Positions 4,937-60,506 of a DNA stretch of 64,000 bases are shown here, one piece after another. The position numbers and the translations under genes were made by a program. Location: NCBI GenBank assembly GCA_049274945.1, contig JBASTP010000002.1, positions 1,125 to 65,124 on the forward strand, read 5' to 3'. Each line of letters opens with the position of its first letter. Positions within the stretch are counted from its first letter, which is position 1. A model generated the notes under the pieces. It made no database searches. It was not told the DNA's origin and saw nothing but the letters and a program-made list of their open reading frames with translations. This stretch comes from Patescibacteria group bacterium. GTDB taxonomy: Bacteria > Patescibacteriota > UBA1384 > GWA2-35-9 > JBASTP01.

Positions 4937-5845
4937 ATGTCCAAAACATTAAAATACGCCCTCTGGCTCTTTGCCGTTATCACGGCGATTAATTTTATTG
5001 TGCTCTTACTCTTCAATCTAGTTGGACGAACCTATGCCTTCCCGGCGTGGGGTAGGCTTGCGCTGATTTTTGGCGGGTCGGCGGTTGCCGGGGCGCTCGT
5101 TACGATACTGGTGATTTCAACCGCGCCGGTGCTCCGCGATTTTCTGGCCACCTTCCGGCGGCTACTGCGCCTGGACTCGCTAACCCACCCGCTCCTTGTC
5201 CGACTTTCTCAGGAAGCGCCCTCCACCTACCACCATGCCTTGATGGTCGCCAACTTTGCCCACCGCGCTACGAAAGTGATCGGGGGTGATCCGCTGCTTG
5301 TGAGAATCGGCGCCTACTACCACGACATCGGCAAGCTCGGCCACCCGGCCGCCTACATCGAGAATCAACGGGGTGAAGTTATGAAACGTAACGATACGAA
5401 CCCTAAAAAAATGGCCCGCGTAATCGTTAACCACGTTAAACATGGCATGAAGTTGGCCAAAGAGTACAATTTCCCCGACGAAGTTGCCGCGTTTATTCCC
5501 CAACACCACGGCACCTCGCTGGCGCGCTTTTTCTACCAGAAAGCGCTCGACTCAGGATACAAAGTGCGTACGCAAGATTTCCGATACCCGGGGCCTAAAC
5601 CGCTCTCTAAAGAAGCCGGTATCCTGATGCTGGCCGACGGTGTGGAGGCTAAAATCCGCTCGCTCACCATCCATACTGAAACGGCGATCGAAGCAGCAAT
5701 CGATTCAATTTTTAAAGAAAAACTCGACGACAACCAACTTGAGCTCTCCGGGCTCACCGACACCGATCTCAAAAAAATCCGCCGCTCGTTTATCGAGTCG
5801 GCGAAGATCTTTTCCCACCGCAGAATCAAGTACCCGAAGGGCTAA
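4937..5845 (+). CDS. membrane-anchored HD/HDIG domain phosphohydrolase
   Basis: N-terminal TM helices then HHALMVANFAH...YHDIGK HD motif. Confidence 0.8.
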   Translation: MSKTLKYALWLFAVITAINFIVLLLFNLVGRTYAFPAWGRLALIFGGSAVAGALVTILVISTAPVLRDFLATFRRLLRLDSLTHPLLVRLSQEAPSTYHHALMVANFAHRATKVIGGDPLLVRIGAYYHDIGKLGHPAAYIENQRGEVMKRNDTNPKKMARVIVNHVKHGMKLAKEYNFPDEVAAFIPQHHGTSLARFFYQKALDSGYKVRTQDFRYPGPKPLSKEAGILMLADGVEAKIRSLTIHTETAIEAAIDSIFKEKLDDNQLELSGLTDTDLKKIRRSFIESAKIFSHRRIKYPKG

Positions 5846-5911
5846 ATAACAGGTTTGCATAAAAAAAAGCACGTACCATGCGGTACGTGCTGGCTGCACC
5901 TGTTAAGGTGC

Positions 5912-6757
5912 TTAGGTCCCGGGCTGTTCGCCCTGAGTTTCTACGGTGAGCCCTTTTGGGGCTTGAACAGGAAAGTGGAGTGTCTCGGGCCGAGCGAAGT
6001 CAAGGACCTGCCCTCGTTTCAGAAAACCCCTGAAACCATCCTCGCGCGCGTTCGGCAGTGGCCCTTCATTGAAGTGGTAGAGCCACAGCCTTGCCCGAAT
6101 CTCATCGGGGAGCGTCAGAAGCTGGCTGTAGTGGGCATGGACCCCAGACATGAACTTCGCGGTTTCAGCATCGTGGAACACGATGTCAGCTTGCCTATAG
6201 AAGTCCATAATCTGGTTCGGGGCAAACTGCGTATCACAAGTAAAGTAGATGCGCAGCTTGTCAGTTTCGAACACCAGGCCGTAGCAGGGCATCAGCTCGA
6301 ACCCGTCCATGACATGAATTGCCTGAACCGGCTGGAACTGAACACCCGCCCATTCGAAGGCCTTGTTCGGGCCGATTGGACGAACGTCGAAGTATGTCTC
6401 CAACGTCGTCCGTTTCTGCTGGATCGAGCGCATCGCGCCCGACAAGCCATTTTCCCAGAGAACATCGAGTACCTTCTGGGAAGCATACAGGCGCGGCTTC
6501 GGTAGCCTCGCAAAATACGTCGCGAATCCCAGATATTCGAGCCCCTGGTCGTGATCGCCGTGGGTATGACTCAAGTAGATGTCGGTAATGTCAGCCGGCT
6601 TCAGGCCGGCCTTGCGCATCGAGAAACGGATGTCAGAACCCGCATCGATGAGCAAACGGTGTCCGTTTTGGATCAGCATGAAGTTGGACTGAAAATTTTC
6701 TCCAACTCGCTTTCCAATGTAAAACGCGCTGCCGGAGCCTAACACGAGCATTTTCAT
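5912..6757 (-). CDS. MBL-fold metallo-hydrolase (RNase Z-like)
   Basis: HTHGDHDQG motif; start set at MKMLVLGSG with AAGGAA RBS (longer ORF to 6814 possible). Confidence 0.8.
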   Translation of the reverse strand: MKMLVLGSGSAFYIGKRVGENFQSNFMLIQNGHRLLIDAGSDIRFSMRKAGLKPADITDIYLSHTHGDHDQGLEYLGFATYFARLPKPRLYASQKVLDVLWENGLSGAMRSIQQKRTTLETYFDVRPIGPNKAFEWAGVQFQPVQAIHVMDGFELMPCYGLVFETDKLRIYFTCDTQFAPNQIMDFYRQADIVFHDAETAKFMSGVHAHYSQLLTLPDEIRARLWLYHFNEGPLPNAREDGFRGFLKRGQVLDFARPETLHFPVQAPKGLTVETQGEQPGT

Positions 6758-41067: not shown

Positions 41068-41583
41068 TTAACTTTTACTTGACATATATTGTCTCAACAC
41101 ACTCGCCACTCCCCTACCTGGCCAGGAAAGCGCGTTGACAAACCTGAAGATCGGCGCATTCAACGTTCCCACCAATTTTGCCTTCAGCTCATCGGCACTT
41201 GGCAACGCGGCGAATACGGCAATCTTTGCTTGATCAATGTTCTCGCCCTCCACATAGCCGCCGTAGATACTTAGATTCGGGTGGTCTTTGGTAAACTCTT
41301 TCAAAATCTTGGCGCTAGCCAGGTAATCCTCGCCCGTTAGTAAGGCAATCGGCTTGTCGAGCAGCTCTTTCGGGAGCGCCTTGCCTATTTTCTCGAGCGC
41401 CTTAGCGAGCAGACGGGTTTTAATAACGCGGACCTTCGCCGACTTGACGCGGAGCAGGCCTCGCAGCTCACTCATCTCGGGGTACATAAGGCCGGCAAAC
41501 CCGACGAAATACCAAGATTCTTGGGTTTTGAGCTCGTCGGAAAGTTTATTTACCAGTTCGATTTTTTGGGCTTTTTTGAGCAT
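41068..41583 (-). CDS. rplJ: 50S ribosomal protein L10
   Basis: L10 family pattern. Confidence 0.9.
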   Translation of the reverse strand: MLKKAQKIELVNKLSDELKTQESWYFVGFAGLMYPEMSELRGLLRVKSAKVRVIKTRLLAKALEKIGKALPKELLDKPIALLTGEDYLASAKILKEFTKDHPNLSIYGGYVEGENIDQAKIAVFAALPSADELKAKLVGTLNAPIFRFVNALSWPGRGVASVLRQYMSSKS

Positions 41584-41768: not shown

Positions 41769-42482
41769 TTATGTCAAGGCCAGTTTAACCCCCGGGCCCA
41801 TGGTGGATGAGAGCACGGCCCCCGCGAGGCGGGTGCGGGGCAGAACTTTGAGCAGCGCCTCAACGTTGGCTTTGATTTTGGCAGCGTCCCAGGAGACTTT
41901 ACCAACGGCTACGTGGATATTGCCCAGTGAATCGGCGCGGTACTCAATTTTGCCCTTAGTAAACTCCTCGGCAGCCTTCTTGGCATCTTCCACAATAGTG
42001 CCGGCCTTAGGATTGGGCATCAGCCCCTTGGGCCCGAGCACCTTCGCCACTTTAGCTAATTTTGGCATCATCGCTGCCTCGGCTAGCAGGACATCGAACT
42101 CGAGTTTGCCTTTGGCGATCTCCTCGATCAAACTGTCCGAGGCAATGGCAACTTTTGGGAGTTTTGGCGTGCCAGCTGGCAACGTGAGCGTGCCGCGCAG
42201 CGCGTCTTGCCCCTTTTTGCTAAGCGTGGCAATGTGAAATTCAATCGTGCCGTCGAACTTGGTCCATGAAGTCTTTTTTGCGAGCTCGATCGCTTCGTCA
42301 AGATCGTAGCGATTGCGGCGGTCTACTTGGGAGCGTGCTTCAATAAACCGTTTGCCGCGCACGCGGGGCGGGCGGACCCGCTGCACCTTCTTCTTTTCTT
42401 CTTCAACTTTAGCAGGAGCAGCTTCGTTAGTTCCTGGCTGCTCTTGTAAGTCTTGAATTACTTTGGTCTTGGTTTGGCCCAT
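41769..42482 (-). CDS. rplA: 50S ribosomal protein L1 (N-terminal extension)
   Basis: L1 family pattern (KFDGTIEFHIATL...). Confidence 0.92.
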   Translation of the reverse strand: MGQTKTKVIQDLQEQPGTNEAAPAKVEEEKKKVQRVRPPRVRGKRFIEARSQVDRRNRYDLDEAIELAKKTSWTKFDGTIEFHIATLSKKGQDALRGTLTLPAGTPKLPKVAIASDSLIEEIAKGKLEFDVLLAEAAMMPKLAKVAKVLGPKGLMPNPKAGTIVEDAKKAAEEFTKGKIEYRADSLGNIHVAVGKVSWDAAKIKANVEALLKVLPRTRLAGAVLSSTMGPGVKLALT

Positions 42483-55493: not shown

Positions 55494-56771
55494 TCAAGTG
55501 GATTGGGGAGGAGTGTATACCCTACGCGAGAAAGCGATCGGTTTTTCTCCTCCGAAACAGTAGCTACAAATCTTGCTACCAAAGATTTCTCGCAAATCAT
55601 CAAGATTCACTATGGTAAGAGAATCGAGCCCCAGTTTCAAAATTACATCACCGGCAGTTCCATTTTCAATAATGCCCCCGGCCGGCCAGTTGGGAACGCC
55701 GTATTGACAGGGTTTGGTAATCAACGGATTCATCGCTACCCCGTGGATAATTTCAACGCCTCGCTGCCTAAGTCGTCTGGCAATCCCTGCCATAGTCTCT
55801 CCGGAGCGCACTGAGTCATCTACCAGGGCTACTCGCCGAAGACCATTAAGCTGACTTTCGATAAAACTGAACTTCAAGTCAACCGGATCTAAACCAGCCA
55901 CGTGATTGCCAATGCGATTGTGGTAACGGTTATAGTACAAAACCTCCCGATAGGGGATATCCAACGCGGCAGCGAAGGCTTGAGCGCCCACGAGAGCTGC
56001 GCGAGGAATTGGGATAACCGCGTCAGCCGGGTAGCTGAAACGGCTTGCCAGGTGCTCCGCCAACTGCTGCCGCCAATGTTCCACCGAGCGGTTATGCCAA
56101 TCTGAGTTAAACATCATCCGCGATGTCACCTCCGACACACAGGGGCGTTTAGCAAAATATGTAATTCCAGGCTGGACCTCCATACCTTTTGAGCTCAGAC
56201 AGACAATTTGACCCGGTTCAAGATTGCCTTGGACGGTCGCTCCGGCCGCGGCGATGCTGGCTGACTCAGTCGCCACAAACCAACTGCCATCTTCGCTCGC
56301 GCCAATTGACAGCTGCCTAACTCCCCTCGGGTCGCGGCAAACCAGCAGTTGATCGGGGAATCCGACGAGGAGACCATAGGCACCGGGAAAACTTTTCATA
56401 TACTGAACTAAATGAGTTGCGGCGCGGGCTCGGTCACGTAGGAGCTGCCTAGGACTACCTGAAAGCTGTCCCTCATAGATGATCGCCCCATTGGTATTGG
56501 CGTTTAGGATCGGGTTCGTAAATGCCTCGGGAAAATTGCAGCCAACCCTCCCTAACACTACGGTGCCATCGTAATCAGGCCAACTGGTTCCGTGGAATGC
56601 GTCACCCAAGAGGCGTTCTTTCTGTTTTGATTTAACCGGTTGATCGGGAAACAGTGCCGTTATCGAGCAGTTATGCTCGCCCCGATGCTGGACGGTAAAT
56701 AGCCCTTGAAAAACTCGATAGCCGAGATCGGCCCGCCGCTCGAAATTGCAGCCCACCATGATTCCTGCCAT
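55494..56771 (-). CDS. amidophosphoribosyltransferase-like protein (class II GATase fold + PRTase motif) lacking the N-terminal catalytic Cys
   Basis: MAGIMVGCNF where PurF has MCGIVGI; C-terminal VALVDDSVRSGETM PRTase motif; GGAGGTG RBS. Confidence 0.7.
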   Translation of the reverse strand: MAGIMVGCNFERRADLGYRVFQGLFTVQHRGEHNCSITALFPDQPVKSKQKERLLGDAFHGTSWPDYDGTVVLGRVGCNFPEAFTNPILNANTNGAIIYEGQLSGSPRQLLRDRARAATHLVQYMKSFPGAYGLLVGFPDQLLVCRDPRGVRQLSIGASEDGSWFVATESASIAAAGATVQGNLEPGQIVCLSSKGMEVQPGITYFAKRPCVSEVTSRMMFNSDWHNRSVEHWRQQLAEHLASRFSYPADAVIPIPRAALVGAQAFAAALDIPYREVLYYNRYHNRIGNHVAGLDPVDLKFSFIESQLNGLRRVALVDDSVRSGETMAGIARRLRQRGVEIIHGVAMNPLITKPCQYGVPNWPAGGIIENGTAGDVILKLGLDSLTIVNLDDLREIFGSKICSYCFGGEKPIAFSRRVYTPPQST

Positions 56772-56797: not shown

Positions 56798-56826
56798 TTG
56801 ACATTTACGGTAATTTGTGCTATAAT
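56798..56826 (+). promoter_or_regulatory. perfect sigma70 consensus promoter TTGACA-17-TATAAT
   Basis: cttgacatttacggtaatttgtgctataattacc. Confidence 0.7.
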
Positions 56827-56832
56827 TACCGG

Positions 56833-57058
56833 TTGCCAAGTTGAGATTTCTGTACTGGGGAGGATGCTCGTAGCAAGTTTTCGATGTTTCCCCCTCCTTG
56901 CATCGTAGCTTGTTGCGAGCATTCTCTCCAGTATCCCACTACCCCACCCGCCATATTTAACACATAATGTTGCGGGAATTGGACAAATGGCGCAAGCCTG
57001 GTGGTGGGCTCTACAGGGGGAAAACGAAAAACGATCTGGTGCAAACCGGATCGTTTTT
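56833..57058 (+). ncRNA. candidate small RNA (~220 nt) between consensus promoter and intrinsic terminator; identity unknown
   Basis: No ORF >60 aa on plus strand; terminator hairpin aaaacgatctgg-tgcaaa-ccggatcgtttttcg. Confidence 0.4.
57020..57058. terminator. bidirectional intrinsic terminator hairpin
   Basis: Stem acgatcYgg/ccRgatcgt with U-runs on both strands. Confidence 0.6.
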
Positions 57059-57073
57059 CGTGTTCCTATATTC

Positions 57074-57622
57074 CTATCTGTATATCCTCCCAAAACGATG
57101 TCTGTCCTGTTTAGCTAAATCTTGCTCTTCTTTTGTAAAACCATCATCTATCTGTAACAATACGCTTGAAGGGTTAATTTCTGAAGCTAGCTGTGCATTT
57201 TCCTTATTCAATAAATCTCGAATATTTGTTCCGTGGTCTTTAGTACCTACGCCTTCGGTGATGAAATTGGCGAGTTTAATCTCTCCCATAGGATTTACAA
57301 ACATTAAAAGACGTTCTGCGGTATGGCCGTTTCCCTCCTCTCTTTCATCCCATTTCACATCTACTGCAATAATTCCTGTTCTTTCAAAGTTTTCTTGTAG
57401 TCTCCCAACAGTTTCGCCCTTTTTCACATCTGGGGGTAATTGCATAGAAGCTCTAACGGCCACAGTTCTTAGCTTATCATTTATCACTAGATCAGTTTCA
57501 TATCTATTGACTTGAGGACTGTTCTCATGAATCGCTTCAACTTCTTTGACAATTGATTTAAGATGCCCATAAACAGCTGCACTTCTTTCTGCAGTTAATT
57601 CTTTTTCGGGTTCATGAACCAT
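57074..57622 (-). CDS. hypothetical protein (182 aa) in AT-rich island
   Basis: Strong SD GGAGGAAAT-ATG; local GC ~38% vs ~55% elsewhere. Confidence 0.6.
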   Translation of the reverse strand: MVHEPEKELTAERSAAVYGHLKSIVKEVEAIHENSPQVNRYETDLVINDKLRTVAVRASMQLPPDVKKGETVGRLQENFERTGIIAVDVKWDEREEGNGHTAERLLMFVNPMGEIKLANFITEGVGTKDHGTNIRDLLNKENAQLASEINPSSVLLQIDDGFTKEEQDLAKQDRHRFGRIYR

Positions 57623-57720
57623 ATTTCCTCCTGGTTCAATAGTATTAGTTCACAGTATATATGTCAAGAGTAGTAGTAAATTAAAAGGCCTCGGAGTATA
57701 TGCACCCTCGGTATTGAATT

Positions 57721-57767
57721 TTATCTGTGTTTATCTGTGGATAAAATCTGTGGTTGTAGTGACTACC
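57721..57767. repeat. intergenic palindromic repeat, half copy 13 (right arm)
   Basis: ttatctgtgtttatctgtggataaaatctgtggttgtagtgactacc. Confidence 0.7.
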
Positions 57768-57768
57768 T

Positions 57769-58194: not shown

Positions 58195-58210
58195 GCGACA
58201 GTTAGTTTAA

Positions 58211-58311
58211 TAAGGTAGTAAAACAGCCACTGATATTAATCCACTGATAATCACTGATTAAGATTTTTATCTGTGGTAATCTGTGGATCAGATATCTGTG
58301 GTTGTGATACT
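58211..58311. repeat. intergenic palindromic repeat, copy 14
   Basis: taaggtagtaaaacagccactgatattaatccactgataatcactgatt...tatctgtggtaatctgtggatcagatatctgtggttg. Confidence 0.85.
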
Positions 58312-58323
58312 TCATTATAATTT

Positions 58324-59403: not shown

Positions 59404-59925
59404 TTACCAGCTGCGTGCGCCGCCAGTTGCTAGCCCGAGAGCCCAGGTTGGTCGGATTGCGTCGTAGAACGGCGAGAAACTATCGATTGCGCTCTCAACC
59501 GTACAATAACCAATTAATTTATAATCTCTGCCGTCTGAGGCGTAGCGGTAACCAGCGGGGCCACTAGTGCACGTTGCTTGATGAGCAATAGCGAATGCTG
59601 ATGGCTTACCTACTAACGGATCCAGTGGCAGCGATCCAACATAATCCGGGGCAAGATTCGGGATGTAGCTCCCCGGCTCACTGCAGAGCGGTGGCCCAGT
59701 CGCTCCAGCAAAACAAGTTGCGAGGCCTAGGGTTGAAGGATAATTCCCCTTTTCTTCGGCATAGACTTCTAGGGCGGTTTGAACGGATTTGAGATCGGCC
59801 TTGCGCCTGGCGTCGCGGGCACGGGTACGGGCGAGCGAAAGATTAACTACCACGGAAGAAGCAAGAATTCCGATGATTGCGACAACAATCAGGAGTTCTA
59901 TCAGGGTAAAAGCCCTTTGAGACAT
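59404..59925 (-). CDS. type IV pilin / pseudopilin (class III signal MSQRA|FTLIELL)
   Basis: FTLIELLIVVAIIGILA prepilin N-terminus. Confidence 0.8.
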   Translation of the reverse strand: MSQRAFTLIELLIVVAIIGILASSVVVNLSLARTRARDARRKADLKSVQTALEVYAEEKGNYPSTLGLATCFAGATGPPLCSEPGSYIPNLAPDYVGSLPLDPLVGKPSAFAIAHQATCTSGPAGYRYASDGRDYKLIGYCTVESAIDSFSPFYDAIRPTWALGLATGGARSW

Positions 59926-60408
59926 CTAGAACGCTGCGCCACCACCGGAGTACACCGCATAGGTGCTCGGCCTGCCAGCAGGGTCCCTCATGATGTCGGT
60001 TGACGCAACCGTATTTTCGACGGTGCACGCGGCAATCAGCTTATACTCCGAGCCAGTCGATTTATAGGCATAGCCAGCGGGAATCGTCGCACAACCATCA
60101 ACCACTCGCCGATGGGTAGGATCGACCGGCAGCACCGGAAGGAATGTTGGGGTAAGCGCCGGGGTGCCGGTAATCCAGGGTTGTGAGCCGGTGTCGGAAA
60201 CCCACGCACTCGCGGTTGTGGGGTAGACGCCGTTTTCATCGTTGTAGGCCTCAAGCGCGGTTTGGAGCGTTTTGAGATCGGCCTTGCGGCGAGCGTCGCG
60301 GGCACGGTTGCGAGAACGGGAGACGTTAACTACTACGGTTGAGGCCAAGATGCCAATAATCCCTATGACAACCAAGAGTTCCACTAGAGTAAAACCGCGC
60401 TTGAACAC
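59926..60408 (-). CDS. type IV pilin (GTG start; MFKRG|FTLVELLVV)
   Basis: AAAGGAGG RBS 5 nt before GTG at 60408; prepilin motif; ORF-track start 60486 lacks RBS. Confidence 0.75.
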   Translation of the reverse strand: MFKRGFTLVELLVVIGIIGILASTVVVNVSRSRNRARDARRKADLKTLQTALEAYNDENGVYPTTASAWVSDTGSQPWITGTPALTPTFLPVLPVDPTHRRVVDGCATIPAGYAYKSTGSEYKLIAACTVENTVASTDIMRDPAGRPSTYAVYSGGGAAF

Positions 60409-60506
60409 ACTGCCTCCTTTGATCTTTGAAGTAGTCAGGAGAAACCCCTGGCTACTATTGTTGTTACATCTATAGTATGAAAGCAATATGCTATTGTCAA
60501 TTAAGT

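Follow-up and report, generated by a model that had tools for sequence, protein, structure and literature searches.

The 64,000-nucleotide stretch of Patescibacteria DNA analysed here as a whole (hereafter the window) very probably carries a genuine and conserved gene for a structured small RNA (sRNA), located between a gene of the phosphoribosyltransferase (PRTase) family and rplK, the gene of ribosomal protein L11. This gene is vertically inherited and ancestral in Berkelbacteria-type Patescibacteria, to which it is confined as sampled, and it defines a new RNA family of a known general kind, outside Rfam. The RNA folds into a long stalk presenting a short C-rich loop that resembles an anti-Shine-Dalgarno sequence, and we tentatively propose that this loop would pair with ribosome-binding sites (RBSs). 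A 182-aa gene located next to the RNA in the window is a functionally unconnected recent insertion of foreign composition, which reuses a pre-existing bidirectional terminator.

Signals, conservation and fold of the small RNA gene

The sRNA gene comprises the following features (minimum free energy, MFE):

56798-56826, plus strand: sigma-70 promoter of the sRNA (-35 box TTGACA at 56798-56803, 17-nt spacer, TG at 56818-56819, -10 box TATAAT at 56821-56826)
56832-57062, plus strand: predicted sRNA transcript of ~225 nt, whose 5′ end is placed by means of the -10 box and whose 3′ end is placed by means of the terminator U-tract
56852-56934, plus strand: H1, the 34-bp stalk, a long hairpin that includes several G·U pairs and is present in the MFE and consensus folds
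56887-56899, plus strand: apical loop UUUCCCCCUCCUU, with the anti-Shine-Dalgarno-like core CCCCUCCUU at 56891-56899
56935-57008, plus strand: domain 2, a three-way junction comprising an outer stem (CCCACUACC/GGUGGUGGG), a hairpin tipped with AU and a tetraloop hairpin (GGC-GCAA-GCC)
57015-57024, plus strand: G-run tail AGGGGGAAAA, complementary to the loop
57025-57060, no strand assigned: bidirectional intrinsic terminator, hairpin ACGAUCUGGU-GCAA-ACCGGAUCGU flanked by an A-run and a U-run

The promoter matches the sigma-70 consensus at 12 of 12 positions and has a TG-extended -10 box (TTGACA-17-TGcTATAAT). It is the only site without mismatch on either strand of the window, in which five sites with at most one mismatch are present for 0.12 expected, and the sRNA would be abundantly expressed. 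No credible open reading frame (ORF) is present on the plus strand between this promoter and position 57060: a 36-aa ORF begins within the promoter itself, and a 182-aa ORF (56967-57515) is the shadow of a minus-strand gene, with a GC content at the three codon positions (GC1/2/3) of 36/50/36, which is not coding-like. The terminator works in both directions because A- and U-runs flank its hairpin on both sides; it is common to the sRNA on the plus strand and, on the minus strand, to the 182-aa gene in the window or to rplK in the relatives. Judging from these sequence signals, the RNA has its own promoter and Rho-independent terminator and is non-coding. An earlier note on this DNA had already pointed out the exact consensus promoter, the segment devoid of ORFs except for a junk-like one and the bidirectional terminator, and our analysis confirms all three. 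The same note had considered that the promoter might merely be a divergent promoter of the PRTase-family gene, from which it actually faces away.

Homologues of the RNA gene are present in eight lineages, of which four bear the label Berkelbacteria; they lie downstream of secE-nusG-rplK and converge with it. Six close homologues of the neighbouring PRTase-family protein gave access to the contigs of the window's own clade, L001 (a Berkelbacteria metagenome-assembled genome, MAG), L002, L003, L004/L005 and L006/L007. These contigs present the gene order L21-secE-nusG-rplK-gap-PRTase-dprA-CYTH-topA-recR, with a gap of 290-370 nt that lacks the 182-aa gene. In L001-L004 and L006, this gap contains the same promoter, RNA and terminator, in the orientation opposite to that of rplK; the terminator is kept in L001, L002 and L004, where the rplK stop codon adjoins it. 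The RNA core of the window is 94, 94 and 87% identical to those of L001, L002 and L004, respectively, versus 86, 85 and 72% for rplK (65, 67 and 48% at third codon positions) and 79, 81 and 65% for the PRTase gene. The RNA core is more conserved than rplK and is therefore under stronger constraint than a ribosomal-protein gene. In L002 (~5420-5483), L003 (~270-406) and L006 (~255-352), an extra 80-120 nt, containing a hairpin (CTGAGGGAGA...TCTCCCTCAG), lies between the sRNA promoter and the PRTase start; this stretch is missing in the window and L001.

A covariance model built from six sequences (R1) was run on 80 Patescibacteria loci fetched through NusG. R1 detects a single copy in the window (56850-57023, 200.7 bits) and scores L001-L006 at 146-198 bits, L019 at 46 bits and L020, another Berkelbacteria MAG, at 57 bits, the latter only with filters off. 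A second model (R2), also run on contigs retrieved through NusG homologues, added five members: L103 (Berkelbacteria assembly GCA_002787515, 65 bits), L105 (66 bits), L104 (40 bits), L101 (36 bits) and L106 (Berkelbacteria GW2011_GWA2_38_9, 31 bits). Among the 80 NusG-fetched loci, R2 with default filters and a custom screen for hairpins with a CCCTCC loop retrieved only L019 and L020. None of the remaining 78 GTDB loci (Moranbacteria, Saccharibacteria-labelled, Falkowbacteria and others) gave a match. Weak members may nevertheless stay hidden, given that the AT-rich L020 had escaped R1 under default filters. Exact-pattern scans for the RNA gave no match in GTDB representative genomes and 11 in JGI metagenomes, all of them low-complexity chance matches.

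At all positive loci, the RNA gene is located downstream of rplK and on the opposite strand, at a distance of 0 to 1.7 kb (~1.6-1.7 kb in L103 and L105). Its other flank varies (PRTase, dprA, membrane protein or mfd), and the PRTase-like gene is absent beside the RNA in L019, L020 and L101-L106. The exact TTGACA-17-TGcTATAAT promoter is present in the window, L001, L003, L004, L006, L020, L103 and L105; one or two mismatches occur in the -10 box in L002, L019, L101 and L104, and three overall in L106 (TTGACT / TATTTT). Indels that are not multiples of three in the relatives rule out a conserved ORF in the sRNA. A 7-codon ORF (MFPPPCIV) across the loop was rejected, its start not being kept in L019 and L020.

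The RNA does not correspond to any Rfam family. Rfam 15 gave no match at gathering thresholds over the whole window (the models for 6S, signal recognition particle RNA, transfer-messenger RNA (tmRNA), RNase P, 6C, RsaE and alpha-r14 being included), and at E ≤ 10 the RNA region gave only chance matches to microRNA-precursor-like hairpins, far below threshold. The L019 and L020 versions yielded nothing relevant in Rfam at either gathering or permissive settings. A scan of the window for tRNA and tmRNA was negative, and no rRNA or Rfam-recognised RNA was detected in the 64 kb. The covariance-model check suggested in the earlier note thus leads to no Rfam family, and our own model finds conserved homologues. 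In the literature, we found no described sRNA of such a kind from the candidate phyla radiation (CPR).

The plus strand at 56833-57066 folds with an MFE of -122.5 kcal/mol (z = -11.3), versus -85.9 kcal/mol (z = -4.3) for the reverse complement. All 59 model pairs are canonical in the window on the plus strand and 50 of 59 on the minus strand; the RNA is read from the plus strand because the nine G·U pairs that make up this gap become A·C mismatches on the other one. In alignment A5 (seq­uences: seven, including the window), 31 of 60 pairs are changed on both sides and 93.9% of cells pair; the corresponding values are 35 of 60 and 92.6% in alignment A7 (nine sequences, L001 standing in for the window). 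Pairing falls to 39-47% in partner-slid controls of A5 (39-49% over A5 and A7), and none of 500 shuffles reached the observed covariation or pairing values. Helices 1 and 2 present both-side changes in 19-20 of 35 pairs, with 91-99% of cells paired, and helices 3-7, which form domain 2, covary as well. Moreover, when L019, L020 and L106 are folded independently as single sequences, their MFE structures reproduce this architecture, including the H1 hairpin, which is a nearly perfect helix of 29-40 bp across lineages. Fold, conservation and covariation together support the stand-alone, non-coding structured transcript of ~220 nt predicted in the earlier note.

Domain 2 has a lineage-specific sequence; it is reduced in L101 and absent in L106, whose RNA (5806-5963) consists only of stalk, loop and terminator and also lacks the G-run. 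A 41-aa gene annotated in L106 (5852-5977) overlaps the RNA and is probably a mis-call. An additional side hairpin is present inside the stalk of L104 (6395-6415), and the 5′ leader of the L003 RNA contains a 58-nt insertion (~175-235). A stem closing the 5′ and 3′ ends in the MFE fold of the window was rejected, as covariation does not support it and L003 joins a window-type leader with an L002-type tail.

The loop sequence CCCCUCCU is invariant in 11 of 11 sequences from the eight lineages, within loops of 10-14 nt, and the next base is U except in L020. The stem sequences, by contrast, have diverged completely. The single-stranded 9-mer of the loop is the sole universal primary-sequence element, its surroundings being kept as structure only; the RNA therefore exhibits a conserved unpaired C-rich, anti-Shine-Dalgarno-like motif framed by varying helices. 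The loop shares CCUCCUU with the canonical 16S rRNA, where these are the last bases of the 3′ anti-Shine-Dalgarno tail. In the window, the G-run is complementary to the loop over 9 bp (UUUCCCCCU with AGGGGGAAA). An RGGGGR motif is located 5-10 nt ahead of the terminator in seven of the eight lineages, at equivalent positions in L019, L020, L101, L103, L104 and L105, and is missing only in the minimal form of L106. Intramolecular pairing between loop and G-run seems sterically unlikely because a helix of ~34 bp is rigid; dimerisation, an alternative fold or a second binding site are possible explanations for the G-run.

Proposed function of the loop and alternative explanations

We interpret the locus 56798-57062 (plus strand) as an independent sRNA gene, with its consensus promoter and intrinsic terminator, whose product would form a stalk of 29-40 bp exposing a loop of 10-14 nt with CCCCUCCU(U), to which most lineages add the three-way junction and the G-run. 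The loop would be the seed for pairing in trans with G-rich, Shine-Dalgarno (SD)-type RBSs (AAGGAGGGG-like) of a subset of mRNAs, and this pairing would occlude binding of the 30S subunit and repress translation. We favour such a trans-acting RNA because its sole universal sequence is a single-stranded anti-SD-like loop, as in alpha-r14/NfeR1, RsaE and RNAIII. In alpha-r14/NfeR1, an ultraconserved CCUCCUCCC anti-SD motif is located in loops with divergent stems, and mRNAs are silenced by RBS occlusion (PMC10746234). In RsaE and RNAIII, conserved loops expose unpaired UCCC motifs whose binding to SD sequences blocks the initiation complex (PMC2790875). The complete explanation, in which an sRNA gene with an RBS-pairing loop stands beside an unconnected 182-aa insertion, appears to us evenly balanced between right and wrong; for the action of the loop by pairing with RBSs, our confidence is slightly below that.

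Target predictions covered the 64-kb window, where the strongest complementarity is offered by sites such as AAAGGAGGGGG, ~20 nt ahead of the start of a hypothetical gene (48656), and the AGGAGG of the PRTase-like gene and of the 182-aa gene. Among the genes of the window and the conserved neighbour genes, none matches consistently across lineages. Canonical SD sequences seem uncommon: GGAGG is found upstream of three of 64 crude ORF calls in the window, and secE, nusG, rplK, dprA, topA and ftsW have no canonical SD in the window or the relatives, the PRTase-like and 182-aa genes being among the few with AGGAGG. An anti-SD-like RNA would therefore be selective rather than global.

Several points weigh against RBS pairing by a conserved sRNA. 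Transcription of the RNA and the position of its ends are deduced from signals in the DNA, and the covariation counts come from few sequences (seven to nine) in alignments fitted to the model structure, which favours that structure. The duplex predictions are not discriminating, since any CCUCC loop fits any SD. The scarcity of canonical SDs could indicate a small regulon, or that SD pairing is beside the point. Finally, a near-perfect helix of 34 bp with a three-way junction is atypical of base-pairing sRNAs, and the RNA could instead bind a protein or be processed.

The alternative that survives best, although we consider it unlikely, is a protein- or ribosome-binding RNA (a scaffold, decoy or sponge, or a mimic of the 16S rRNA tail titrating a factor or SD-bearing mRNAs) or a component of a lineage-specific housekeeping ribonucleoprotein. 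Consensus promoters are typical of abundant housekeeping RNAs, and within the window's clade this RNA shows higher conservation than the gene of a ribosomal protein. Its stalk and three-way junction with a GNRA tetraloop hairpin are elaborate, its loop has the CCUCCUU of the 16S rRNA 3′ end, its place beside the ribosomal/NusG operon is fixed in eight lineages, and SD-led genes are apparently few. However, domain 2 can be dispensed with, as L106 (absent) and L101 (reduced) show, and its sequence is not conserved between lineages. The only universal sequence is a single-stranded loop of 9 nt, which is typical of pairing seeds, and no partner protein gene is co-conserved, the other flank being variable. 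We also consider it decidedly unlikely that, as an abundant mimic of the 16S rRNA 3′ tail present throughout the lineage, the RNA would use its CCCCUCCUU loop, possibly gated by the G-run, to vie with ribosomes for the small number of SD-bearing mRNAs or to sequester a factor recognising the anti-SD.

We give little weight to an action in cis, in which strong convergent transcription and the bidirectional terminator would shield the PRTase-like gene and dprA from read-through out of the highly expressed secE-nusG-rplK operon, or in which the RNA would be antisense to this read-through. The RNA is indeed always convergent with rplK, often with a terminator common to both. Moreover, no recognisable promoter of the PRTase-like gene lies between its start and the terminator in the window and L001, so that its mRNA may start as read-through antisense to the sRNA. 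Nevertheless, insulation or interference requires neither a covarying structure nor an invariant loop, ~1.6-1.7 kb separate the RNA from rplK in L103 and L105, and the downstream gene is not the same across lineages.

It is very improbable that the long hairpin is an RNase III substrate, a precursor of shorter RNAs or part of a defence or mobile element such as a retron-like non-coding RNA. The almost perfect helix of 29-40 bp would suit such a role, and the weak microRNA-precursor-like Rfam matches reflect this hairpin shape, but the conserved part is the loop and not the stem sequence. The housekeeping context is stable in all lineages, and no reverse transcriptase, nuclease or defence gene is co-conserved, a PADLOC search of the neighbours giving one weak match, to the PRTase.

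Finally, a minus-strand 5′ leader or riboswitch of the PurF-like gene, or a palindrome acting at the DNA level, has a negligible probability: within the window's clade the element immediately precedes the PRTase-like gene, and its minus strand also folds better than shuffled sequence, but the RNA is on the opposite strand, loses nine of its 59 pairs when read from the minus strand, has a promoter and U-tract suited to the plus strand, and persists without an adjacent PRTase-like gene in L019, L020, L101, L103/L105, L104 and L106.

The AT-rich insertion and the neighbouring genes

The surroundings of the sRNA gene contain the following features:

57062-57768, no strand assigned: strain-specific AT-rich insertion of ~707 bp between the terminator and the rplK stop codon, absent in relatives
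57074-57622, minus strand: 182-aa ORFan gene, with an SD (AGGAGG, 57627-57632) and a promoter-like site (TTGACA-17-TACTAT, 57667-57639)
57715-57760, no strand assigned: half copy, at the end of the insertion nearest rplK, of an ATCWGTGG palindromic repeat dispersed in the genome
57769-58194, minus strand: rplK (L11, Pfam match), the conserved convergent neighbour of the sRNA
55494-56771, minus strand: PurF-like PRTase-family gene (start taken as ATG at 56771, SD AGGAGGTG), the divergent neighbour in the window's clade only

The earlier note had described a minus-strand 182-aa gene with a strong SD and no known motif between a purF-like gene and rplK, which we confirm, together with its foreign-looking composition. 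It had also delimited a low-GC stretch starting at 56805 and regarded the sRNA and the protein as one horizontally acquired module, and here our results diverge. The RNA segment (56831-57066) has a GC content of 50.4%, versus 52.6% for the window, and only 57059-57768 is markedly poorer (38.0%). The RNA and the 182-aa gene are not one compositional island, because the GC content of the RNA segment is host-like. Compositional analysis therefore upholds the foreign character of the gene (GC3 of 27%) and not that of the RNA.

The 182-aa gene has a coding-like periodicity (GC1/2/3 of 55/34/27, the GC3 of neighbouring genes being 53-67%) and stops 15 nt short of the shared terminator. It is missing from every relative examined that has the RNA, and in L001, L002 and L004 the rplK stop codon directly follows the terminator, without the insertion. 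The homology search suggested in the earlier note returned only the protein itself in a k-mer/HMMER search of 5.8 billion proteins, and itself plus a 26-residue chance match in a full HMMER scan of 1.84 billion representatives. The protein has no match in Pfam, NCBIfam or PADLOC, and we treat as chance both its best PDB sequence match (E ~0.56) and one weak, non-significant match to a DNA primase in PHROGs (E 0.038). No similar gene was detected by tblastn in IMG/VR, phage and plasmid records. An AlphaFold single-sequence model is unreliable (predicted local distance difference test score, pLDDT, of 41). The gene is probably a real, recently acquired ORFan.

With its deviating composition and its absence at the same locus in L001, L002 and L004, the segment 57062-57768 is comparable to a horizontally acquired genomic island. 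Signatures of mobility were looked for in its sequence, and neither an integrase or transposase nor a target-site duplication or terminal repeats came to light; no tRNA is present in the window, and the only ORF of the segment matches no family. That this gene and the RNA were acquired together is scarcely credible: the two are adjacent, share one terminator and the gene is compositionally foreign, but the RNA fits the host in GC content and occurs without the gene in every relative examined, and the protein has no homologue anywhere searched, hence no recurrent pairing of the two.

The half repeat at the end of the insertion belongs to a dispersed, imperfectly palindromic intergenic element of ~90-115 bp composed of ATCWGTGG/CCACWGAT octamers, 54 of which are present in the window. 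The element is found at ~3.8k, 17.5k, 18.05k, 40.95k, 42.5k, 43.15k, 43.55k, 44.63k, 45.1k, 48.75k, 50.35k and 51.1k, at 57715-57760 (the half copy) and at 58205-58320. It forms a long hairpin on either strand and often adjoins promoter-like sites; close relatives almost lack it in their syntenic contigs, in which nusG directly adjoins rplK. The element looks like a genome-specific expansion similar to those of repetitive extragenic palindromic (REP) sequences or miniature inverted-repeat transposable elements (MITEs). The sequence TGTGGATAA at 57736, considered as a DnaA box, was rejected as such since it belongs to this repeat.

The PRTase-family protein is not a typical amidophosphoribosyltransferase PurF. 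It scores 126 bits against TIGR01134, for a cutoff of 350, and contains only PF00156, without the glutamine amidotransferase (GATase) Pfam domain, unlike true PurF. Only six close homologues turned up among 5.8 billion proteins, and PADLOC gave a weak match to PsyrT. Its gene is followed by dprA wherever the contig reaches far enough. Purine synthesis is expected to be missing in this lineage, and the protein may be an enzyme turned to another use.

The usual linkage of rplK and rplA is broken in this lineage, in which the sRNA gene takes the position after rplK; rplA (candidate, 41769-42482) and rplJ (41068-41583) are located ~15 kb from rplK. Two tandem type IV pilin-like genes are present at 59404-60486.

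Significance and comparison with known systems

CPR bacteria have tiny genomes and few regulators, and there are no cultures; to our knowledge, almost no work exists on RNA-based regulation in these organisms. The locus described here provides a new RNA family backed by covariation, with a clear candidate active site in its invariant anti-SD-like loop, and a covariance model ready for use on Patescibacteria genomes and metatranscriptomes. If the loop does target RBSs, the C-rich-loop strategy would have evolved independently in a third, deeply divergent lineage, and the RNA would offer a way into translation control in organisms that seem to make sparse use of SDs. Should the RNA instead mimic the 16S rRNA tail, it would be a global translation-control RNA of an undescribed kind and the first functional sRNA defined for the CPR. 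The 182-aa gene is a strain-specific ORFan insertion, to be analysed apart from the RNA.

This insertion resembles small ORFan-bearing islands by its sharp drop in GC content (38% versus 53%), its GC3 of 27%, its absence from close relatives and the presence of its own promoter and SD. Unlike such islands, it shows none of the usual marks of mobility, and the one repeat it carries is half of a palindromic element that belongs to the host itself.

The RNA itself resembles 6S RNA in its size (~200 nt), very strong promoter and lineage-wide conservation. However, 6S RNA is rod-like, its 5′ and 3′ ends pairing in a closing stem that is followed by a large central bubble and a terminal stem, whereas this RNA is composed of a perfect hairpin and a three-way junction, without bubble or match to the 6S model; a stem closing its ends is not supported by covariation, and it does not have the rod-like fold. 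With RsaE/RoxS and RNAIII of Firmicutes, it has in common the class of C-rich loop and the intrinsic terminator; it differs from them by the absence of homology (negative in Rfam), a much longer stalk, a single loop and a G-run complementary to this loop in the same molecule.

The closest parallel is alpha-r14/NfeR1 of alpha-rhizobia. These bacteria belong to an unrelated phylum, the RNAs have no similarity in sequence or Rfam model, and pairing is only predicted in our case. NfeR1 is formed of three short hairpins, each with a redundant copy of the motif, in contrast to the single motif, 29-40-bp stalk and three-way junction observed here. Nevertheless, both are stand-alone sRNAs with an anti-SD motif (CCUCCUCCC in alpha-r14/NfeR1, CCCCUCCUU here) located in loops, whose stems are free to diverge.

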